Assembly: GCA_964291675.2 (NCBI GenBank)
Contig: OZ219866.1
Span: 3,456,001 to 3,520,000 of the forward strand
Origin: Alphaproteobacteria bacterium
Lineage (GTDB): Bacteria; Pseudomonadota; Alphaproteobacteria; MPNO01
Direction of reading: 5' to 3'
DNA: 64,000 bases
In this document: positions 1,184-12,044 of the stretch, piece by piece
Layout of the letters: the number at the start of each line of letters is the position of its first letter
How positions within the stretch are numbered: the first letter of the stretch is position 1
Program-made: the position numbers and the translations under genes
Notes under the pieces: generated by a model
The model's input: only the letters and a program-made list of their open reading frames with translations
What the model was told of the DNA's origin: nothing
Database searches by the model: none

Positions 1184-2800
1184 ATGGCCGATCGTCCGCG
1201 CGTCGTCGTCGTCGGGGGCGGCCCGGTCGGGCTCGCGCTCGCCGTCGATCTGGGCTTGCGCGGCGTCGCCTGCACCCTGGTCGAGCGGCGCACCGAGCCC
1301 CACCGCATCCCCAAGGGCCAGAACCTTACCCAGCGCACGCTCGACCTGTTCTATTCCTGGGGCATCGCCGACGAGCTGCGCTCCCGGCGGGTCATCCGGC
1401 CCGGCTTCCCCGGCAACGCCATCGTCGCCTATGGCGACCTCGCGGGCGCGCACTGGTTTGCCGGCGTCTACCGGACCGCGGTCGACAAGTACTACTTCCA
1501 GCGGAGCGAACGGCTGCCGCAATACCTCACCGAGCAGGTGCTGCGGGACCGCCTCGCCGGGATCCCGGCGGTCGGGGTGAGGGAGGGCTGGTCCGCCGAA
1601 GCGGTGCGGCAGTCGGCGGGCGGCGCCGCCGTCGACATCGCCGAGCAAGGCGGCACCGTGCGCGAAACCGTCGAGGCGGACTATGTCGTCGGCTGCGACG
1701 GCAGCCGGTCCACGGTGCGCGACAGCGCGGGCCTCGCCTCCGGCGGAACCGATTACGAGCAGACCATGGTGCTCGCCGTGTTCCGCTCGCCCGCGCTCGG
1801 CGAGCGGCTGAAGCGCTTTCCGCCGGCCTATATCTACCGGGTGGTGCACCCGGACCTGAACGGCTACTGGCGCTTCTTCGGGCGGATCGACGAGCATGAG
1901 GGCTGGTTCTTCCACGCGCCCGTAGGCTCGGCGGAACGGAGCGAGGCGGGGGTCCGCGCGCTGCTCCGCGAGGCCGCCGGCTTCGAGTTCGACTGCAGCT
2001 TCGAGCATATCGGCTACTGGGATCTGCGCGTCTCGATTGCCGAGGCGTTTCGCGCGGGCCGCGTGTTCATCGCCGGCGACGCGGCGCACAGCCACCCGCC
2101 CTATGGCGGGTACGGTCTCAATACCGGGTTCGAGGACGCGGCCAATCTGGGGTGGAAGCTGGCGGCGGTGCTGCAGGGCTGGGGCGGCGACGCCCTGCTC
2201 GACTCCTATAGCGAGGAGAGGCAGGAGGTGGCCAGGGACACGGCGGCGGAATTCATCGACAGCCGGATCTCCGCCGACCGCGAGCTGTTCGACCGGATCC
2301 ACCCCGAACGCGACGCCGAGGCGTTCGCGCGCGGCTGGGCGGCTTATGCCGAGGCCGGGAACAGGCATTTGAACAGCTACGCGCCCCATTACGAGGGATC
2401 GACCGCGATCGCCGGCCCGCAAGGCGGGGTCACCGGCGCCGCATCGGCGCGCAGCGAGCGGGCGCGGCCGGGCCACTACTTGCCGCCGTGGCGGCTCGCT
2501 TCGGGGCGCAACGTCTTCGAGGAGCTGGGGCGCGGGTTCACCCTGGTCGCGCTCGGCGCCGCCGACGCGAGCATCGCTCGCCTCCAGCGCGCCTGCGCGG
2601 AACGCTCGATCCCGCTCAAAATCGTCCGCGGGCCGGCGCCCGAGAGCCTGGGCGCCGGTCTCGTCCTGGTCCGCCCGGACGGCTACGTCGCCTGGGCTGG
2701 CGACGCCCCCCCGGAAAGCGCGGACGCGCTGATGGCGCGGGTGACGGGTTCGGCTACCCGCCCATCAGGCCCGGCAGGTAGAGCGTCAGCCCCGGGATGA
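1184..2800 (+). CDS. FAD-dependent monooxygenase (PheA/TfdB-like aromatic hydroxylase)
   Basis: MADRPRVVVVGGGPVG, VGCDG, FIAGDAAHSHPPYGGYGLNTG, LVRPDGYVAW; start is internal to the 404..2800 ORF. Confidence 0.9.
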   Translation: MADRPRVVVVGGGPVGLALAVDLGLRGVACTLVERRTEPHRIPKGQNLTQRTLDLFYSWGIADELRSRRVIRPGFPGNAIVAYGDLAGAHWFAGVYRTAVDKYYFQRSERLPQYLTEQVLRDRLAGIPAVGVREGWSAEAVRQSAGGAAVDIAEQGGTVRETVEADYVVGCDGSRSTVRDSAGLASGGTDYEQTMVLAVFRSPALGERLKRFPPAYIYRVVHPDLNGYWRFFGRIDEHEGWFFHAPVGSAERSEAGVRALLREAAGFEFDCSFEHIGYWDLRVSIAEAFRAGRVFIAGDAAHSHPPYGGYGLNTGFEDAANLGWKLAAVLQGWGGDALLDSYSEERQEVARDTAAEFIDSRISADRELFDRIHPERDAEAFARGWAAYAEAGNRHLNSYAPHYEGSTAIAGPQGGVTGAASARSERARPGHYLPPWRLASGRNVFEELGRGFTLVALGAADASIARLQRACAERSIPLKIVRGPAPESLGAGLVLVRPDGYVAWAGDAPPESADALMARVTGSATRPSGPAGRASAPG

Positions 2801-3203
2801 ACACGATCAGCGCCAGGCGGACGATGTCGGCGACGAAGAACGGGCTGATGCCGGCGAAAATGCCCCACAGCGACATCTCCGGCATGATGGTCTTGAGCAC
2901 GAACACGTTCATGCCGATCGGCGGCGTGATCAGGCTGATCTCGGTCACCATGATGACTACGATGCCGAACCAGATCAGGTCGAAGCCGAGGCTCTGGACC
3001 ACGGGGAAGAAGATCGGCACGGTCAGCAGGATCATGCCGATGCCCTCGAACACGCAGCCCAGCGCGATATAGATCAGGCAGATCACCAGCACGACGGTGA
3101 TCGGGGCGATCTCCAGCGAGTTCACCCAGTCGACGATCTGGTTGGGCATACCCGAGATGTTCATGAAGTTGGACAGGATGATCGCGCCGAAGGCGACGCT
3201 GAA
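2754..3203 (-). pseudogene. dctM: TRAP large permease DctM, 3' fragment cut by IS66 composite
   Basis: FSVAFGAIILSNF...FDLIWFGIVVIMVTEISLITPPIGMNVFV; reading frame continues beyond 16787. Confidence 0.85.
3196..3203. repeat. Target-site duplication, left copy ACGCTGAA (right copy 16780-16787)
   Basis: Identical 8-mer abuts both outer IS66 ends; 8 bp is the IS66 TSD length. Confidence 0.9.
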
Positions 3204-3374
3204 GTAACCCTCCGGCGTAGGCCGCCTGTTGAGCAGGCGCAGGCTTTCAGCGGGGATTGGGGGCTGATCCGCTTGGATTAATCGAGGTTTTGGGGAAGGT
3301 GCCCCCCGGCGATCTTGCAAGAAGGCCGCCGGAGGGCTTGTCTCGGTGACAGCTACATCAACTGAGACGCCCCA

Positions 3375-3989
3375 ATGTCGCACAAGCTGTTCCGTCACTC
3401 CATCCTCTGCAACGCCCGGGTTTGGGACTTTCTGAAGCAGGTCGACGCAGCCGAGGCGGAGGCCTGCCGTGCGGTGGGCTGTCCTCACTGCGGCGGGACG
3501 CTTCACAGCGCGGCCTACCCTCGCAAGCCGTACGGTCTGGCGGCGGATCTTCGGGACGATGTGCGGCGCTTCAGCCTGTGCTGTTCGGTGTGCAGGCGCC
3601 GGGTGCGTCCTGCCTCGGTGCGTTTCTTCGGTCGGAGGTTCTACGTCGGTGCGCTGTTCCTGCTGGTGAGCGCACTGGCGCTGACCGGCGGGGTGCGGTT
3701 GCAGACGATCGCGCGGCGCTGTGGGGTTCCGGTCTCGACGCTGAAGCGCTGGCGTCGCTGGTGGCTGGACGCCTTCCCGGCGACCCCGGAGTGGGCGGCG
3801 AAGCGGGGCGAGCTGGCGACACCGGCCGGGGAAGCGCCTGTGCGCCGGCTGCTGCGCCTGATGCGGGGCCGGGGCCTGCGGGCGCGGCTGCTGCGGAGCC
3901 TGGTCTGGCTGATGCCGTGGACCGGTTCTTGCGCGCTCGGCGCCGGGCCGGCTTCGCCCGCAGAAAGCGTTTCTGTCATGAACGGATAG
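3375..3989 (+). CDS. Cys-rich Zn-finger plus HTH protein (transposon accessory)
   Basis: CPHCGG and CCSVCRRR cysteine pairs; HTH-like IARRCGVPVSTLKRWRRWW. Confidence 0.7.
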   Translation: MSHKLFRHSILCNARVWDFLKQVDAAEAEACRAVGCPHCGGTLHSAAYPRKPYGLAADLRDDVRRFSLCCSVCRRRVRPASVRFFGRRFYVGALFLLVSALALTGGVRLQTIARRCGVPVSTLKRWRRWWLDAFPATPEWAAKRGELATPAGEAPVRRLLRLMRGRGLRARLLRSLVWLMPWTGSCALGAGPASPAESVSVMNG

Positions 3990-4038
3990 GGGCTCTTACA
4001 CCGGCATCTCCCCAACAGGGCGAGGGAGGGATGCCGGG

Positions 4039-5493
4039 ATGGACAGCAACGACGGGAGCGAGCGTCGCGACCGGTGGGCGCGGCTGCGCTTCGCGGTGGT
4101 CGGGCCGCTTCTGGCCTCGCCGCCGCCGAAGGGGAAGCTGCGGGCCGAGCTGGAGCGGCTGGCCGGACGCGAGTGGGAACATCCGTCCGGCAAGGGGCCG
4201 GTGCGCTTCTCGGCCTCCACGATCGAGCGCTGGTACTACCAGGCGCGGGCGCAGGAGCAGGACCCGGTCAAGGCGCTTCGCCGAAAGCCACGGGCCGACA
4301 TCGGCCGCGAACGGGCGATATCGGCGGCACTGATCGAGGTGTTGCGCGATCAGTACCGGGCGCATCCGTCGTGGTCGGCACAGCTGCACCATGAGAACCT
4401 GGCGGCGCTGGTCGCGGCCGATCCGGCGCTCGGCCCGATGCCGTCCTATGCGACGCTCACCCGGGCGATGCGGGCTCGCGGGCTGGTGCGCAAGCGCCGG
4501 CGCAAGTGGCACGAGAGCGAGGCGCGGCCGCCTGTCCAGGCCCGCGAGGTACTGAGCTACGAGGTCACGCGCAGCCACGCCCTGTGGCACAGCGATATGC
4601 ATACCGCCAAGTGTCGTGTGCTGACGGCCTCGGGCGAGTGGAAGACGCCGATCCTTCTGGGCTTTCTCGACGACCACTCCCGGCTCGGCTGCCACCTTCA
4701 GTGGTATCTCGCCGAGACCGCAGAGGTCTTCGTCCATGGGCTGTGCCAGGCGTTGATGAAGCGGGGCCTGCCGCGGTCCCTGCTGACCGACAACGGCTCG
4801 GCGATGACCGCCGGCGAGGTCGAGGAAGGGTTGCTCCGGCTCGGCATCGCGGGGGTCACGACGCTCGCGTACAGCCCGCATCAAAATGGAAAGATCGAGA
4901 CTTTCTGGGGCACGGTCGAATCACGCCTGATGGCCCAGCTCGAAGGCGTCGACGCGCTCACCCTGAAGATGCTCAACGACGCCACCGTCGCCTGGCTGGA
5001 GCAGGACTATCACCGCCGCGAGCACCGCGAACTCGGCATGTCGCCGCATCGGCGCCTCGCCGGGAGCGTCGACGCATCGCGGCCCTGCCCCGGCGCGGCC
5101 GAGCTCAAGGCGGCCTTCCGCATCACGAGGAAGCGCATGCTCCGGCGCTCGGACGGCACCGTCTCGGTCGAGAACATCCGCTACCAGATACCGCCGCCGT
5201 GGCGCCACCTGCGCGAGGCCTGGGTCCGCTATGCGCGCTGGGACCTCAGCAGCGTCGATCTGGTCGACGGCCGGGGCGGCGAACGGCTGTGCACGCTCTA
5301 TCCCCTCGACAAGCGCGGCAACGCCGATGGTGTGCGCCGTCCCATCGGCCCCGGCGACGACGATGGCAAGGGCGGCGAGGGGACAGGCGGACTGCCGCCG
5401 CTGCTCAAGAGCATGCTCGACGCGCAGGCTGCAACCGGCCTGCCGCCGGCATGGCTTGCCTTCGATGACACCCGCGATGATGGAGAACGCTGA
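4039..5493 (+). CDS. DDE (rve) transposase/integrase, Mu/IS481/IS21-like
   Basis: N-terminal HTH (SASTIERWY); catalytic LWHSD, LLTDNGSA, NGKIETFW; C-terminal DGTVSVENIRY. Confidence 0.9.
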   Translation: MDSNDGSERRDRWARLRFAVVGPLLASPPPKGKLRAELERLAGREWEHPSGKGPVRFSASTIERWYYQARAQEQDPVKALRRKPRADIGRERAISAALIEVLRDQYRAHPSWSAQLHHENLAALVAADPALGPMPSYATLTRAMRARGLVRKRRRKWHESEARPPVQAREVLSYEVTRSHALWHSDMHTAKCRVLTASGEWKTPILLGFLDDHSRLGCHLQWYLAETAEVFVHGLCQALMKRGLPRSLLTDNGSAMTAGEVEEGLLRLGIAGVTTLAYSPHQNGKIETFWGTVESRLMAQLEGVDALTLKMLNDATVAWLEQDYHRREHRELGMSPHRRLAGSVDASRPCPGAAELKAAFRITRKRMLRRSDGTVSVENIRYQIPPPWRHLREAWVRYARWDLSSVDLVDGRGGERLCTLYPLDKRGNADGVRRPIGPGDDDGKGGEGTGGLPPLLKSMLDAQAATGLPPAWLAFDDTRDDGER

Positions 5494-6326
5494 TGAACCG
5501 CGAACACCTCACCCTGTACGGGCTCAAGTGGAACCCGTTCGCCCCTGACCTCCCGGTCGACAGCCTGATGGCGACTGGCGCCGTCGACAGCTTCTGCCTC
5601 AGGATCGAACGCCATCTCGTGCGCCACGGCGGCTTCGCACTGATCGCCGGAGAGCCCGGAACCGGAAAGAGCGTTGCCCTGCGCCTGCTCGCCCACCGGC
5701 TCGGGCGATGCGACGGGCTCAGGGTCGCCGCCATCACCCACCCGTCCTCGAGACTGTCGGACTTCTACCGCGAGATCGGCGAGCTGTTTGGCGTCGACCT
5801 GCTGTACAACAATCGCTGGGCCAGCTTCAAAAACCTGCGCCAGCGCTGGCTCGCGCATCTCGATGACACCCGCATGCGCCCGGTGTTGCTCATCGACGAG
5901 GCCCAGGAACTGCTGCCCTCGGTGTTCTCCGAGATCCGCCTGCTCGCGTCGACCGACTTCGACTCGCGCGCCATCCTCTCCGTCGTCTTCGCCGGTGACA
6001 ACCGCCTGCTCGACCGGCTCCGCCAGCCCGACCTGCAGCCCATCGCCTCGCGTATCCGACAGCGTCTGCTGATGACCCGGACCGAGGACGCCGACCTGGC
6101 CGGCCTGCTCGACCATCTGCTCGAAGAGGCCGGCAATCCGGCGCTGATGACCGCCGGGCTCAGGGACACCCTCGTCACCCATGCCGCAGGAAACCCCAGG
6201 GCACTCACCGTCATGGCTGATGCCGTGCTCGCAGCCGGTGCCGAGAAGGATCGCGAGGTGCTCGACGAGAAGCTCTTCATCGAGACCCTCGGCGAGGCAC
6301 CGCCAGCCAGGCGGGCCCGGCGATGA
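5493..6326 (+). CDS. ExeA-like AAA+ ATPase (transposition helper)
   Basis: YGLKWNPF, Walker A GEPGTGKS, Walker B LLIDEAQ, GNPRAL; TGATG coupling to the transposase. Confidence 0.85.
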   Translation: MNREHLTLYGLKWNPFAPDLPVDSLMATGAVDSFCLRIERHLVRHGGFALIAGEPGTGKSVALRLLAHRLGRCDGLRVAAITHPSSRLSDFYREIGELFGVDLLYNNRWASFKNLRQRWLAHLDDTRMRPVLLIDEAQELLPSVFSEIRLLASTDFDSRAILSVVFAGDNRLLDRLRQPDLQPIASRIRQRLLMTRTEDADLAGLLDHLLEEAGNPALMTAGLRDTLVTHAAGNPRALTVMADAVLAAGAEKDREVLDEKLFIETLGEAPPARRARR

Positions 6327-7312
6327 CCGGCTTCCCGACACGGCCACCGGCCGAACTCGAGGAGCGGCCGCGGGAGCGGCAGTGGCTGGTCGATGCCCTG
6401 TGGAGCGAACAGGGGGTCGGCATCGTCGGCGGCGAGCCCAAGTGCGGCAAGTCCTTCCTCGCGCTGGACCTCGCCGTCGCGGTGGCTGCAGGAGTGCCCT
6501 GCCTGCGCCACTTCCGCCCCGCGGCAAGCGGCACCGTGTTGCTCTTCGCCGCCGAGGACGCCGGTCACATCGTGCGCGACCGCCTCAAGGGCATCGCCCG
6601 GGCCGCCGGCGCCGACTTCGAGGCCCTCGACATCGCCGTCATCGACGTGCCCACGCTCCGCCTCGATCATCGCCTCGACCGGCAGCGGCTGCTGGAGACC
6701 GTCGAACGGATCGGACCGCGCCTCCTCGTCCTCGATCCCCTGGTCCGCCTGCATGGCGTCGACGAGAACGCGGTTGCGGAAGTCGCTCCCATCCTCGGCT
6801 TCCTGCGCGACCTGCAGCGCCGCTTCGGGACCGCTGTGCTGCTCGTCCACCACGCTCGCAAGAGTGGCGCCAGCCGCCCCGGCCAGGCGCTGCGCGGCAG
6901 CAGCGAGCTGCATGCCTGGGGCGACAGCAATCTCTACCTGCGCCGGCGCGACGGGCAGATCGTCATGACCGCCGAGCATCGCGCCGCACCCGGCCTCAAC
7001 AATATCGAGATCGAGCTTGCCGATGACGGCGAAGGACCAGCGCTGCAGCTCCGGCGGACAGGACCTCACCAGGCTCCGCCGCAGCCGGACAGCGCCGAAC
7101 AGCGGATCGCCCAGGTGCTCGCGACAGCCGAATCCCCACTCGTGCAGTCCGAGATCCGAAAACGCGCCGGGGTACGCAACGCGACTGTCTCCGCGGCACT
7201 GCACGGGCTTGTGCGCGAGGGACGGGTCGAGCGCGGGACGGGAGGTCGCTACCGCTTCCTCGGAACCGCGGCGAACCAAGCCGACAACCCGACGGACAGC
7301 CACAACCCGTAG
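6323..7312 (+). CDS. AAA_25/RepA-like RecA-fold helicase with C-terminal winged helix
   Basis: QWLVDALW, GGEPKCGKS, LLVLDPL, LLVHHARK, LRGSSEL; ATGA overlap. Confidence 0.8.
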   Translation: MTGFPTRPPAELEERPRERQWLVDALWSEQGVGIVGGEPKCGKSFLALDLAVAVAAGVPCLRHFRPAASGTVLLFAAEDAGHIVRDRLKGIARAAGADFEALDIAVIDVPTLRLDHRLDRQRLLETVERIGPRLLVLDPLVRLHGVDENAVAEVAPILGFLRDLQRRFGTAVLLVHHARKSGASRPGQALRGSSELHAWGDSNLYLRRRDGQIVMTAEHRAAPGLNNIEIELADDGEGPALQLRRTGPHQAPPQPDSAEQRIAQVLATAESPLVQSEIRKRAGVRNATVSAALHGLVREGRVERGTGGRYRFLGTAANQADNPTDSHNP

Positions 7313-7327
7313 GCGAAGCAGCCCCTC

Positions 7328-7381
7328 TTCCCGTTCCCGTTCCGGCGAACCCTTAAGCGTTGCAGGGAACGGGAACGGGAA
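7328..7381. repeat. Perfect 16-bp inverted repeat built of GGGAAC hexamers
   Basis: TTCCCGTTCCCGTTCC (7328-7343) / GGAACGGGAACGGGAA (7366-7381). Confidence 0.85.
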
Positions 7382-7694
7382 CACCAGCGCACAATGCCCC
7401 ACGAAACTGCCTGAAGCGATCGGCCAATGGCCGAAAGCTCTGCTTACGGCCATGGCAGCCCTCTGGCGCGGGGACGGCGGCGGGTCACCCGAAGGGCCGT
7501 AGCGGAGCGAAGGAGCCGCGAAGCGGCTTGAAGCGCCGACGGCCTCGCGACACTCCCCGCCCGGCCTTCCTGCAAACGGCAGACGATCCCCATCGAATAA
7601 CGCGAAATCCGCACCATCAAACAACGTGCGCGCGCTCACTGTTCCGATGGGGGGCGTTTGGTGGGTCTGAGTGCTTGGGAAGTGGGCCCTTGTT

Positions 7695-7724
7695 AAGTGT
7701 CCACTTAGCGGCAAGTGGACACTT
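7695..7724. promoter_or_regulatory. 12-bp inverted repeat over the tnpA start region
   Basis: AAGTGTCCACTT-N6-AAGTGGACACTT. Confidence 0.55.
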
Positions 7725-8146
7725 GGCCGATGTCGGTTGCGAGTGAGAAGCCGGGCGCGGGAAGCGGTGAGACGGCCGATCGGCGGCGCCGTCGGTGGAG
7801 CGAGGCTCAGAAGCGCCAGATCGTCGCGGAGAGCCATGAGCCTGGGGTTTCGGTGTCGGTCGTTGCGCGGCGTTACAACGTCAATGCCAACCAGGTCTTC
7901 ACCTGGCGTCGGCGGTTCCGCGAGGCGGCGCGCGACGCCGGGGCTGGCCGGTTGGTGCCGGTGGTGGTCGAAGCGCCTTGCGACGGGGAGGCCGGCGCGT
8001 CGGCGCCGTGCCGGTCGTCCGGGGACGTTGTCGCGGCGGCGGGGCGGATCGAGATTGCGCTGGCGTGCGGCGCGCGTGTGATCGTCGGCCGGGCGGTGGA
8101 CGGTGTGGCTCTGGCCCGGGTTCTTGCGGTTCTGGATCGGCGATGA
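7715..8146 (+). CDS. tnpA: IS66 TnpA (HTH)
   Basis: RRRRWSEAQKRQIVAES...VARRYNVNANQVFTWRR; start may be ATG 7730. Confidence 0.9.
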   Translation: MDTWPMSVASEKPGAGSGETADRRRRRWSEAQKRQIVAESHEPGVSVSVVARRYNVNANQVFTWRRRFREAARDAGAGRLVPVVVEAPCDGEAGASAPCRSSGDVVAAAGRIEIALACGARVIVGRAVDGVALARVLAVLDRR

Positions 8147-8490
8147 TCCCGGTTCCGGGTGGTGTGCGGGTGTGGCTGGCGACCGGGGTGACGGACATGC
8201 GTCGCGGCATGAACACGCTGGCGCTGCAGGTCCAGGAGGATCTCGGGCGCGACCCTCACGCGGGCGATCTCTACGTTTTCCGGGGCCGTCGCGGCGACCT
8301 GATCAAGATTCTCTGGCACGACGGGGTTGGGATCTCGCTGTATGCCAAGCGGCTTGAGCGGGGCCGGTTCCAGTGGCCGACCACGTCTGGGGGCGCGGTG
8401 TCGATCGGCGCGGCGCAGCTCGGCTACCTGCTGGAAGGGATCGACTGGCGGAATCCGGTTCGGACCTGGCGGCCGTCGCGGGCGGGCTGA
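8143..8490 (+). CDS. tnpB: IS66 TnpB accessory protein
   Basis: MIPVPGGVRVWLATGVTDMRRG...LYAKRLERGRFQWP. Confidence 0.92.
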   Translation: MIPVPGGVRVWLATGVTDMRRGMNTLALQVQEDLGRDPHAGDLYVFRGRRGDLIKILWHDGVGISLYAKRLERGRFQWPTTSGGAVSIGAAQLGYLLEGIDWRNPVRTWRPSRAG

Positions 8491-9971
8491 TCGGCGGGGG
8501 AGCCGTGCGGTCGGCGCGATTGTTGTAGCGCCGAATCGGGTGCTGTGATTCGATTCCGCCAATGACCGGCGGATCCAACATTGCATCTCTGAAGGCGGCG
8601 CTTGCGGCGGCCGAGGCGCGGGCCGCGAACGCCGAGGCGAAGGTGTCGGACGCCGAGGCGGAGATCGCTTTCCTCAAGCTGGCGGTCGAGAAGCTCCGGC
8701 GCGAGCTCTACGGGCAGCGCTCGGAGCGCAAGCAGCGGCTTCTCGACCAGCTCGAGCTGCAACTCGACGAGCTTGAGGCGAACGCGACGGAGGACGAGCT
8801 GGCGGCCGAGCAGGCGGCGGCCGGCACGACCGAGGTCAAGGGGTTCACGCGGCGCAAGCCGGCCCGCAAGCCGTTCCCGGCGCATATTCCGCGCGAGCGG
8901 AAAGTGGTTCCGCCGCCGACATTCTGCGCGTGCTGCGGCTCGGAGAAGCTGTCGAAGATCGGCGAGGACGTGACCGAGACGCTGGAGGCGATCCCGCGCC
9001 AGTGGAAGGTGATCCAGACGGTGCGCGAGAAGTTCACCTGCCGGGCTTGCGAGAAGATCGGCCAGCCGCCGGCGCCGTTCCACCCGACGCCGCGGGGCTG
9101 GGCTGGCCCCAACCTGCTGGCGACGATCCTGTTCGAGAAGTACGGGCAGCACCAGCCGTTGAACCGCCAGCGCGACCGCTACGCGAGGGAGGGTATCGAT
9201 CTCAGCCTGTCGACCCTGGCCGACCAGGTGGGCGCGTGCACGGTGGCGCTGAAGCCGCTGCACGATCTGATCGAGGCCCATGTCATGGCGGCGGAACGCC
9301 TGCATGGCGACGACACCCCGGTGCCGGTGCTGGCCAGGGGCAGGTGCGCCACCGGGCGGGCCTGGGTCTATGTGCGCGATGACAGGCCGTTCGGCGGTCC
9401 GGATCCGCCGGCGGCGCTGTTCCGCTACGCGCGGGACCGGTCCGGCGCTCACCCGGTCGCGCATCTGGAGACCTTCGCCGGCATCCTCCAGGCCGACATC
9501 TACGCCGGCTACAACGCCCTCTATGTGGCCGGGAGATTGCCCGGGCCCGTGATCGAGGCTGCGTGTTGGGCGCATTCGCGAAGGAAGTTCTTCGATCTCG
9601 CCGACATCGCGGCCGGGAAGAGGCGCGGCAAGGACCCGCCGCCGGTCTCGCCGCTCGCGCTGGAGGCGGTGAAGCGGATCGACGTGCTGTTCGATATCGA
9701 GCGCGGGATCGTCGGCAAGTCCGCGGAGGAGCGCCTCGCCGTGCGCCGGGAGTTGAGCGCGCCGGTGCTGGCCGAACTCAAGGAGTGGATGCGGGCCGAG
9801 CGCGTGAAGCTGTCGAAACATGCCCCGGTGGCCAAGGCGATGGACTACATGCTCAGGCGCTGGGAGCTGTTCGCCCGCTTCCTCGACGACGGCCGCATCT
9901 GCCTCACCAACAATGCCGCCGAGAGGGCGCTCAGAGGTATTGCGACGATGGAGTCATTCTGCACCCCTTCT

Positions 9972-12044
9972 TCAAGTGTCTGAAAACATTGACATCTGAT
10001 CCCGACATGAAGCGCGACGCGGGTCTTTCCGCAGTGCCAGGGCGTTGGCGACCCGCTCGGAATGGAGGTCTTTGGCCCTGATTTGCCAGGGCGCTCCGGG
10101 AACGAGTTGCGTGGCAGGTAGCGTTCCATCCTCGATCAGGCGCCTGAGGGTATGGCTGGTCGTGCCCAACTCTTTCGCCGCCTCGGTCATGGTGCGCCAG
10201 TCGCCCTGCTTGTCCGCTGAGAGGTAGCCGTCGATCCCGTTCACACGCCGGATCGATCCGACCCGGTGAGCGGTCCAACTCTTGTGCTGCCCGGTCCGCA
10301 TACCCATCCGGTTGAGCGACGCGGCGATATGTTCGTCCGACCATCGCCCGGCCATGCTGCGTATCACTGCCAGAGCTTCCTCGGGCGTTCGGCAGCCATG
10401 TTCGCCGCTCTTGGGCTTGCGGACCCTGAGACGGGAATGACGGCCACCCATCCAGTGGATCGTCAGCAGGACGTCACGCGCCTCTTCGTCGACATCGACG
10501 ATTATGCCCATGATCAGGGTGCGCACGAGACGCTGGCGGGCGCGCATGCTCACCCCGGGCGCGTTCCAGGCGGCCTTCAGGTCGTCGGCAAGTCCGGCCA
10601 GGTCGGGGACAGTGGGCCGCGGCGACGGCATCGCGCCCAGCCTTGCTTCGCACGCCTGGACGCGTCGAAGCGCTGCCTCCCAACTCTTCTCCAGCTCGGC
10701 GGCGATCAGCCGGTTGTCCGGATCGCAGGCGGCGTAGCGCCGCTCGGCGAGCGCCGCCTCGTAGCGGGCTTGCTGCAGATCCAGCTCGGCCACCCGTTGC
10801 TGTTCGGAAAGACCCTCCGCGTTCATCCGCTCGGCTTCCAACGAGGCTTCCACCGCCATGGGCTCCACGACGCGGAGGATCTCATCGGCAACGGCCGCAT
10901 CCACACGCGCACCCCCGAACCCCAGACAGGGCTCTAGCTCGAGCTGGAGGTGTCGCCGATTGCAGCGGTAGACAGGATTGCCGGGCGTGCGACCGGAATA
11001 GGCAACGCTCATCGTGCGTCCGCAGCGTGCGCAACTGAGGAGGCCGCCAAGAAGCGCCCGCCCGCCGCGCCCCGACTTCGTGCCCCCCGCCTTGCCGAAG
11101 GCATTGGCGGCGAGCTGCGCCTGGTTGCGCTCGAACTCCGGCCAGTCGATGTAGCCCTCGTGATGGTCCTTCAGCACGACCTCCCATTCCGCCATCGGCT
11201 TGCGGTGTCCATAGCTCTTGCGCACGCGCCCGTCGACGATCTCGGTCCGCCGCTCGCTTTTGCCGTAAGCGTAGACCCCGGCGTAGAAAGGGTTCTTCAA
11301 CACCGAAATTACGTTGCGATAGCGGATCGGCGTCCAGTCGAAGGAGACCATTGTCCTGCCATCCGACGGGCGTGGGAAGCAAAGCTTCTGCCCGCTCAGC
11401 GCCAGCAACACCTGCCGCGCGCTGCCAAGCTCGCGAAACCGGGCGAATACCTGACGGATCGCTTCCTGAACCCGAATGTCGGGGTCCAGCCCCAGCCCGG
11501 CCTCGGGATGCCAGACGTAGCCGATCGGGACGCTGATGCGAAGCTCGCCGCGGGCGGCCTTGGAGCGGGCGGCCTCGAACATCCGAGCGCGCAGAACGCC
11601 GAGTTCGAACTCGCTGATCTGGCCCTTCATGCCGAGCAGCAGACGATCGTTGGGGTGGCGAGGATCGTAGATGCCATCCTGGTCGATGACGCGTGCCTCG
11701 ACGAGACCGCAGAGCTCGAGAAGATGGTGCCAGTCCCGGCCGTTGCGAGAGACCCGCGAAGCCTCGAAACAAAGCACGGCTCCAACGTCCCCGGCGCACA
11801 GCCAGGCGACGAGGCGCTCGAAACCGGGCCGCGCAACGGCACCGTCCGCCGACAGGCCCTGATCGTCGTCGATGACTTCGACCCGGGCAAAGCCGTGCCC
11901 GCGCGCCACATCGACGAGATCGTATTGGCGGCGCTGGCTCTCCAGATTGTTCCGCATCTGCTGGGGCGTGGACTGACGGACATAGACCACGGCCTTGCGC
12001 GTCAACACCGATCGCGGCAACGCTTCAGCGACGCCCATCGTCAT
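9972..12044 (-). CDS. Large serine recombinase (resolvase + recombinase + Zn ribbon + C-terminal HTH)
   Basis: AVVYVRQST, EASRVSRN, NPFYAG, CARCG, DPDNRLIAAELE. Confidence 0.92.
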   Translation of the reverse strand: MTMGVAEALPRSVLTRKAVVYVRQSTPQQMRNNLESQRRQYDLVDVARGHGFARVEVIDDDQGLSADGAVARPGFERLVAWLCAGDVGAVLCFEASRVSRNGRDWHHLLELCGLVEARVIDQDGIYDPRHPNDRLLLGMKGQISEFELGVLRARMFEAARSKAARGELRISVPIGYVWHPEAGLGLDPDIRVQEAIRQVFARFRELGSARQVLLALSGQKLCFPRPSDGRTMVSFDWTPIRYRNVISVLKNPFYAGVYAYGKSERRTEIVDGRVRKSYGHRKPMAEWEVVLKDHHEGYIDWPEFERNQAQLAANAFGKAGGTKSGRGGRALLGGLLSCARCGRTMSVAYSGRTPGNPVYRCNRRHLQLELEPCLGFGGARVDAAVADEILRVVEPMAVEASLEAERMNAEGLSEQQRVAELDLQQARYEAALAERRYAACDPDNRLIAAELEKSWEAALRRVQACEARLGAMPSPRPTVPDLAGLADDLKAAWNAPGVSMRARQRLVRTLIMGIIVDVDEEARDVLLTIHWMGGRHSRLRVRKPKSGEHGCRTPEEALAVIRSMAGRWSDEHIAASLNRMGMRTGQHKSWTAHRVGSIRRVNGIDGYLSADKQGDWRTMTEAAKELGTTSHTLRRLIEDGTLPATQLVPGAPWQIRAKDLHSERVANALALRKDPRRASCRDQMSMFSDT

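Follow-up and report, generated by a model that had tools for sequence, protein, structure and literature searches.

In replicative transposition, the step by which a finished strand-transfer complex gives rise to a replication fork is an old problem, solved only for Mu, where host factors carry it out. The host proteins PriA and DnaB-DnaC are required for the replication of Mu, and the Tn7 relatives without TnsA rely on host proteins for replication as well. Mu, Tn5053, Tn402 and the type V-K CRISPR-associated transposons (CAST) all combine a TnsB-like transposase with a MuB/TnsC-like ATPase. According to the available part of PMC8649781, Tn7-like elements without TnsA are predicted to transpose replicatively. 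A further named element with a transposase and an ATPase gene is Tn6049 of Cupriavidus metallidurans CH34 and Pseudomonas aeruginosa pHS87a, which is 3.5 kb long, is present in 12 copies in CH34 and carries ‘gspA’ (PMC2864759, available part), and which has TG..CA ends, 12-bp imperfect inverted repeats starting TGTGC and a 4-bp direct repeat (PMC4739549, available part). No functional study of Tn6049 was found in the literature searched. Here, we describe a 4,409-bp transposon at positions 3230-7638 of a 64,000-nt stretch of DNA from an Alphaproteobacteria bacterium (GTDB lineage MPNO01; assembly GCA_964291675.2, contig OZ219866.1, forward-strand positions 3,456,001 to 3,520,000), hereafter the window. 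Judged by its sequence, the window element is a distinct branch of the Tn6049 family, separate from Tn6049 itself, and its fourth gene encodes a RepA-like helicase that we think probably aids replicative transposition.

The closest annotated plasmid relatives of the window element, found with tblastn among plasmid records, are from Cupriavidus and Paraburkholderia. On pMOL30 the order is ‘transposase’ (181 aa), ‘IS481 family transposase’, ‘AAA family ATPase’ and a 71-aa hypothetical protein, and an exact look-up returned these as Tn6049 proteins, under the names ‘protein involved in mobility of Tn6049’ and ‘ATPase ... Tn6049 / GspA’. Relative to the window element, the Tn6049 zinc/helix-turn-helix (HTH) protein is 41% identical (E 5e-30), the transposase 50% identical (about 480 aa in both) and the 277-aa GspA/ExeA-like ATPase 51% identical (E 3e-93), and the order and overlaps of these three genes are common to both elements. 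Both also have TG..CA ends, short imperfect repeats and a 4-5-bp duplication, the termini reading TGAGC in the window element and TGTGC in Tn6049. They part at the fourth gene, which is a 329-aa helicase in the window and a 71-90-aa frame in Tn6049, in total length (4,409 bp versus 3.5 kb) and in a hairpin of TTCCC/GGGAA units that the window element has and that is found in 0 of 70 Tn6049-type loci. The earlier note on this DNA had suspected a poorly described family. This is right in so far as the literature searched held no functional study and no description of the helicase-bearing form (subscription journals, supplements, ISfinder and TnCentral were outside its scope), but the core of the element matches a transposon that already has a name.

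Genes 2 and 3 tie the window element to the wider superfamily. The family profile of the transposase matches TnsB of ShCAST, a type V-K CAST (7svw, E 2.6e-19, positions 53-412), the protein itself matches the phrog_310 transposase (E 2e-38), the alignment columns of its three candidate catalytic residues are invariant, and Mu-transposase C-terminal domains were found in its relatives. The ATPase matches phrog_296, ‘DNA transposition protein’ (E 3e-20), and, by profile, MuB (8xvb, E 9e-9) and ShTnsC (E 1.6e-4). Its gene overlaps the transposase gene in TGATG (5491-5495) and the helicase gene in ATGA (6323-6326), stop and start codons being shared in a manner that amounts to translational coupling; the operon order and coupling read from the bare sequence in the earlier note are thereby borne out. 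The target consensus of Mu is N-Y-S-R-N, and a target of this kind and a 5-bp duplication are common to Mu and the window element. In contrast to Mu and the TnsA-less Tn7 relatives, the window element is far smaller, has no TniQ, resolvase or guide system, and encodes a helicase. Tn7 proper has TnsA and TniQ/TnsD, whereas Pfam and NCBIfam searches matched neither TnsA nor TniQ among the four genes that fill 3375-7312. Elements of the Tn5053/Tn552 type bring their own resolvase and res site, whereas no recombinase domain was found in the window element. A staphylococcal plasmid arrangement of recombinase, 480-aa transposase and 271-aa ATPase, which we take to be Tn552, resembles the window element in pairing a Mu-type transposase gene (about 480 aa) with an AAA ATPase gene (about 271 aa) that comes next and overlaps it; the catalytic region of its transposase is 24% identical to that of the window, but it has a serine recombinase and bla cargo, both absent here, and neither zinc/HTH protein nor helicase. 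Tn552 has long terminal repeats. IS21 and IS481 share with the window element a DDE enzyme of the rve fold, IS21 with a helper AAA+ ATPase as well, and the NCBI pipeline labels Tn6049 transposases ‘IS481 family’. Membership of the window transposase in either family was rejected, its scores lying far under the curated NCBIfam cut-offs (IS481, 114 bits versus 224; IS21, 40 bits versus 160), and NCBIfam gave no IstB match for the ATPase.

The window element is almost certainly an active transposon of the Tn6049 family. A DNA search of its own genome with positions 3100-7800 returned four copies at 100% identity, and by script all four proved to be one and the same 4,409-bp string, with TGAGCAGG...GCGCGCTCA at its ends and hence TGAGC...GCTCA termini throughout. 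The window copy is flanked by the 4-bp duplication CTGT and the other three by the 5-bp duplications CCGGT, CCGGA and ACCCG. Because four identical copies share their ends yet have separate duplications, they record movement by insertion, and the limits, ends and duplication proposed in the earlier note stand. Among 72 copies in four other assemblies the duplication measures 5 bp in 40, 4 bp in 24, 6 bp in one and 3 bp in one, with none in six, so that a 4-bp duplication is normal for the element; the mixture of 5 and 4 bp is real, because a set made up of 4-bp duplications would look like 5 bp in only about a quarter of cases. Forty reconstructed target sites show a weak N-C-N-G-N preference (C in 28/40, G in 26/40). 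At the window site itself, contigs from two public runs of two studies join 3225 to 7639 with a single CTGT kept (4,413 bases skipped, 5 ambiguous letters, only 22-25 letters on the shorter side); from this empty-site joint the insertion appears polymorphic, which is supportive but short of proof.

The terminal inverted repeats of the element are 14 nt long and match at 11 of 14 positions, and TGAGC termini are kept in relatives at about 50% protein identity. Internal to them lies the motif TTAWTCGAKGG, at 3278-3288 on the forward and 7590-7600 on the reverse strand. The claim of a subterminal inverted repeat is thus sustained by symmetric placement and by conservation in five aligned relatives, although the count of the motif in the window is by itself within chance (3 matches versus 1.55 expected).

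The product of gene 4 would be a RepA/DnaB-like helicase of hexameric type, a putative unwinding enzyme. Its best profile match is RepA of plasmid RSF1010 (1g8y, E 1.5e-14), followed by DnaB (E 0.012-0.019) and RadA (E 0.08), and its C-terminus matches Z-alpha winged helices (E 7e-4). It aligns to 1g8y residue by residue through the Walker A, catalytic Glu, Walker B, His and Arg motifs, and K43 of Walker A, E78/D79, D138, H176/H177 and R191, the last within the sequence LRGSS, are invariant in 44 sequences down to 34% identity; we take these to be the catalytic, sensor and arginine-finger residues. RSF1010 RepA differs in having no C-terminal winged helix and in belonging to a plasmid replicon, not a transposon.

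The helicase is kept both in close relatives of the window element and in more distant ones found through the helicase itself. In a genome collection 206 stretches match the window transposase, and in the best 80 of these, with 72-88% transposase identity and from 10 assemblies, a helicase homologue lies 3' of the ATPase gene in 80 of 80 (displaced by an insertion in L063, cut by the contig end in L089 and with an internal stop in L013); the zinc protein is present in 79, the exception beginning inside the element. Approached through the helicase, a family profile of 17 proteins that are 41-53% mutually identical matched 386 stretches. The ATPase gene lies directly upstream of the helicase in 79 of the best 80, the last contig starting inside the helicase gene, and the order zinc protein, transposase, ATPase, helicase is clean in 51, the others being truncated or mis-ordered by overlapping stop-to-stop frames. 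A whole-library search with the helicase gave 487 clusters at 50% identity (E < 1e-30), and at about 50% identity or more the family occurs essentially only inside these transposons. In the more distant clade found with the helicase profile, two copies of 4,751 bp in one assembly have TGAGC...GCTCA ends that enclose the helicase, one with a 4-bp duplication and one without. Across nine subfamilies of the window clade the median ratio of nonsynonymous to synonymous substitution (dN/dS) is 0.28 for the helicase (31 pairs), 0.33 for the zinc protein, 0.34 for the transposase and 0.35 for the ATPase (36 pairs each), and the identities of transposase and helicase co-vary over 74 elements (Spearman 0.69). 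Co-occurrence and conserved ends across genomes thus agree with the unit proposed in the earlier note, and the helicase is a conserved and selected part of a large clade, distinct from incidental cargo, that very probably serves the element.

The helicase is also found on a second kind of transposon. Four loci (L234, L236, L247 and L261) have an alternative backbone in which the first gene encodes a DUF6431 protein; the L247 and L234 transposases align to that of the window at 29% identity, and all four fall outside the main clade on the transposase tree. Their helicases nest within the main clade (support 99 in the Shimodaira-Hasegawa-like approximate likelihood ratio test, SH-aLRT), so that the module has moved between backbones and been recruited again. 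In two of these loci (L247:371-910 and L234:1978-2691) the DUF6431 gene is preceded by an additional gene, the first of the element, whose product has a SEC-C zinc motif and TPR repeats.

Past its stop codon the helicase gene is followed by a hairpin with 27-nt arms that are 81% complementary and whose motif has its sole match in the 64-kb window there. The two arms change together between subfamilies, GTTCCC/GGGAAC in some and GTTACC/GGTAAC in others, as expected of compensatory change. A strict pattern finds the hairpin within 350 nt past the helicase gene, at a median of 42 nt, in 35 of 80 loci with enough sequence; across 620 kb of these loci the pattern matches nowhere else. With a relaxed pattern the count is 42 of 70 for loci of the distant clade and 0 of 70 for Tn6049-type loci. 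Most window-clade hairpins, being GTTACC variants, escape this pattern (1 of 10 found), although the alignment shows them to be present; all 12 pattern-negative loci that were inspected have the same kind of hairpin with the variant units GGGAAG, GGGAAA or GGAACC. The hairpin follows the helicase on the alternative backbone too, and in all accompanies the helicase module on three transposase backbones. Because the repeat units are conserved across helicases that are only about 40% identical, they argue for recognition by a protein, beyond a mere terminator. A consensus scan found no intrinsic terminator. Between hairpin and right end lies a non-coding core with predicted GAA-loop stems that is conserved better than coding sequence and in which three pairs show compensatory change. 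With nhmmer this core was found in 75 of 80 loci of the window clade, in 15 of 25 own-genome loci and in 0 of 163 loci of other clades. Rfam gave no family for 3100-7800, only a chance microRNA match (E 0.79).

A sister lineage adds a primase to the helicase. In 401 genomes of the phylum, the helicase query found homologues at 42-43% identity within a five-gene unit, which encodes a 251-aa protein of no known family, an rve transposase, an AAA_22 ATPase, an AAA_25 helicase and a DnaG-type primase. The transposase is 29% identical to that of the window over the aligned catalytic stretch, and homology between the 251-aa protein and the zinc protein was undetected. The primase has the DnaG CHC2 zinc ribbon and a Toprim domain and matches the dnaG model TIGR01391 (E 1e-29). 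The order transposase, ATPase, helicase, primase stands in L292 and L293 (Magnetococcales) as well as in L296 and L297 (about 50% primase identity), three further loci have helicase and primase only, and in 4 of 7 primase-type loci the hairpin follows the primase gene, as GTTCCGTTCC...GGAACGGAAC. The L296 unit is a genuine transposon of 5,282 bp, with TGTTACG...CGTAACA inverted repeats and the 5-bp duplication GGGCT. Of the six next-nearest helicase relatives in the phylum sample, at 28-37% identity, five are primase-helicase fusions. A role of the helicase in replication is supported because the sister lineage adds a primase and the nearest relatives outside transposons are primase-helicase fusions. 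Another link between the superfamily and primase parts comes from a distant relative with three genes, where the frame after the ATPase gene, 107 aa long (L290:149-472, reverse strand), has a DnaG-type CHC2 zinc finger.

Hence, we consider it probable that the window element is an active Tn6049-family transposon whose helicase and hairpin aid Mu-like replicative transposition. The transposase would nick the 3' ends only and join them to target DNA captured by the ATPase, as in Mu and the TnsA-less Tn7 relatives, and the forked strand-transfer intermediate would then be replicated. The element's own helicase would open that fork, standing in for host PriA and DnaB-DnaC. It may be brought there by the ATPase, by its winged helix binding the repeat hairpin close to the right end, or by both together, and in the sister lineage the DnaG-type primase would complete a self-encoded primosome. 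For the helicase the earlier note had suggested a part in replication, during replicative transposition or on an excised circle; the link to replication has gained from the primase and the fusions, and of the two routes we retain the first, with action specifically at the strand-transfer fork as a plausible but tentative assignment. Slightly more tentative is the general proposal that widespread Mu/TnsB-type transposons encode their own primosome, made of a RepA-like helicase, in one lineage a primase, and the TTCCC/GGGAA hairpin as a loading or recognition site, and that this module is portable between backbones. If true, the element itself would perform the step from transpososome to replisome, for which Mu depends on host PriA and DnaB-DnaC.

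Several observations weigh against this reading. The Tn6049 transposase found 460 related stretches, and in the best 80 (15 with full 5-kb flanks) the helicase is present in 0 of 80 loci by family hidden Markov model and BLAST, with no remnant detected, while the trio of zinc protein, transposase and ATPase is conserved (zinc protein in 71 of 80, the remainder mostly truncated contigs). The earlier note's counter-case, that homologous pairs usually lack the helicase, is therefore true of Tn6049-type loci but not of the close relatives, all 80 of which carry it. Because Tn6049-type relatives do without it, the helicase is not required for the transposition chemistry and is rather an enhancer or a substitute for host factors. 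The helicase-less elements form a single clade on the transposase tree (SH-aLRT 99) that FastTree and a quick IQ-TREE nest among helicase-bearing lines; a tree uniting all helicase-bearing rows stays acceptable in the approximately unbiased test (p 0.65), and the helicase state would have changed once, by gain or by loss. Duplications are intact in 66 of 72 copies, which fits simple insertion or resolved replicative events, and the domain search of the four genes found no resolvase for cointegrates. The orientation of insertions shows no bias relative to flanking GC skew (32 of 72 positive, p 0.41). The hairpin could be a mere transcription terminator that travels with the gene, and its detection by either pattern is incomplete. 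Many relatives come from short contigs in binned metagenome genomes, so that their host and taxon labels cannot be trusted; where contigs are long, the elements are found at least in Alpha- and Gammaproteobacteria and in Kofleriaceae.

The same genes could also be explained without a role at the fork. Helicase and hairpin might form a small replicon. The excised circle would then be copied in plasmid fashion before it reinserts: the winged helix would bind the origin, the helicase would play the part of RepA, and the hairpin would be the origin or an ssi site. The best solved relative of gene 4 is after all a replicon helicase, and RSF1010, with its RepA helicase, RepB' primase and ssi hairpins, is mirrored by the helicase and primase of the sister lineage and by a hairpin that adjoins the module, although RepB' is not DnaG-type and the sister-lineage primase is. 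The repeat hairpin moreover resembles iterons or an initiation hairpin, and a conserved structured core adjoins it. No 7638-to-3230 circle junction was found, the empty site being the only joint, although a circle could not have shown in these data, which are assembled contigs and one Hi-C run that gave 0 matching reads (about 1 in 100 of its reads sampled). Moreover, tblastn of the helicase against 72,556 plasmid records gave no match, the window element has no separate initiator or polymerase, and to our knowledge TnsB/MuA-type enzymes are not known to make excised circles, and we regard a replicating circle as unlikely.

We give a similarly low likelihood to a helicase-like protein that acts as target selector or regulator in the position of TniQ, TnsD or TnsE, steering the ATPase to DNA structures or repressing the element through its winged helix. 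Tn5053 and Tn7 do carry target selectors after the TnsC-like gene, and gene 4 stands directly after such a gene and is translationally coupled to it; three of the four own-genome copies lie in or at IS66-family elements, and the helicase-less Tn6049 clade shows that the chemistry works without the helicase. A selector would nevertheless sit badly with a target preference that is weak N-C-N-G-N only and free of orientation bias, with the invariance of all catalytic NTPase motifs and with a sister-lineage primase and primase-helicase fusions that point to replication, and the IS66 association may equally be tolerance of insertions in dispensable DNA. Finally, the helicase might be passenger cargo with no role in the life of the element, either a remnant of another replication module or a host-beneficial or defence gene. 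Transposons of this superfamily often carry cargo, according to the available part of PMC8649781, and Tn6049-type relatives have none of the helicase (0/80). A passenger is, however, hard to square with a position kept in 80 of 80 and 79 of 80 loci across deep divergence, with purifying selection equal to that on the transposase, with renewed recruitment by a distant transposon backbone and with a specific cis hairpin that travels along, and no PADLOC defence family was matched; we hold it to be very improbable.

As a natural system the group is compact, with four or five genes in 4.4-5.5 kb, and the transposon seems to bring its own helicase and, in some members, its own primase; this would open the step from strand transfer to replication to direct tests by genetics and in vitro. 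The group is abundant, 206 stretches of the genome collection matching the transposase and 386 the helicase family, and existing annotations call its products no more than ‘IS481 family transposase’, ‘ExeA family protein’ and ‘AAA family ATPase’. Should the helicase prove a mere passenger, what is left is a new branch of the Tn6049 family.

Table 1 Features of the window element (window positions)
Feature	Position	Strand	Evidence
Left target-site duplication CTGT	3226..3229	.	Same 4 bases at 7639-7642; one copy at the empty site
Left terminal inverted repeat TGAGCAGGCGCAGG, begins TG	3230..3243	+	Boundary set by four identical copies
Left non-coding end with subterminal motif	3230..3374	+	Mean column identity 92% in five subfamilies (proteins 74-87% identical)
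Gene 1, Cys4 zinc-ribbon and HTH protein, 204 aa	3375..3989	+	HTH_23 E 2.5e-6; CxxC...CCxxC
Gene 2, DDE transposase of TnsB/MuA type, 484 aa	4039..5493	+	rve; candidate catalytic D186, D251, E287
Gene 3, AAA+ transposition ATPase of MuB/TnsC type, 277 aa	5493..6326	+	AAA_22 E 2e-21
Gene 4, putative RepA(RSF1010)/DnaB-like RecA-fold helicase with C-terminal winged helix, 329 aa	6323..7312	+	AAA_25 E 1e-37
Hairpin, arms of three tandem TTCCC / GGGAA units	7328..7381	+	16 nt past the helicase stop codon
Conserved non-coding core of about 150 nt with predicted GAA-loop stems	7402..7553	+	Nearly invariant in five subfamilies
Right terminal inverted repeat, ends CA, with subterminal motif at 7590-7600	7625..7638	-	Four identical copies, alignment
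Right target-site duplication CTGT	7639..7642	.	Matches 3226-3229; empty site

Gene 1 reads as a Cys4 zinc ribbon followed by an HTH domain. In an alignment of 37 homologues from both clades, C36, C39, C69/C70 and C73, a PRKP motif and an RWRxWW helix are invariant. A profile search found no relative among solved structures, and a weak profile match points to a DUF6431 protein (probability 38%, E 3e-4), which is the kind of protein that holds the same position in distant relatives. The suggestion that this zinc protein is a TniQ-like target selector finds no backing, as it has no TniQ match and the target sites are only weakly N-C-N-G-N. The left non-coding end upstream of gene 1 probably holds putative transposase-binding sites and a promoter; a sigma-70 consensus scan found no promoter.

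Copy number, length and flanks vary among the fetched loci. Each of the four other assemblies has 9 to 33 of them, with a very high copy number of 33 (L046-L078) in one and 20 (L014-L033, L080, L091) in a second, nearly all of one length. L063 and L080 measure 7,105 and 6,458 bp versus the usual 4,400 bp or so and have something inserted, which in L063 splits the helicase region. In one Alphaproteobacteria assembly L015 and L026 have no duplication of their own and swapped flanks, with CGACC on the left of one and the right of the other and ACGG the reverse, as expected of a cointegrate left unresolved or of two copies that have recombined. The own genome also holds a diverged relative at a contig start (L005, contig C1:13-2898; 77% DNA identity), in which the transposase match spans residues 199-470 only and the ATPase gene is cut by the contig end.

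The region around the window element looks like a nest of mobile elements. An IS66-family element (orfA, TnpB_IS66 and DDE_Tnp_IS66; 7640-10300) begins directly after the transposon, and a large serine recombinase gene (9972-12044, reverse strand; Resolvase, Recombinase, zinc ribbon and HTH_17) adjoins the IS66 element, outside the transposon. On the other side, 2754-3204 on the reverse strand encodes only the C-terminal third of DctM of a TRAP transporter (profile positions 278-413 of 413), and this gene ends abruptly where IS66-like and transposon sequences start. The three own-genome copies that lie in or at IS66-family elements sit at the left end (window), between orfA and orfB (L002) and within the transposase gene (L003), an association that could reflect targeting or mere tolerance of insertions in dispensable DNA.

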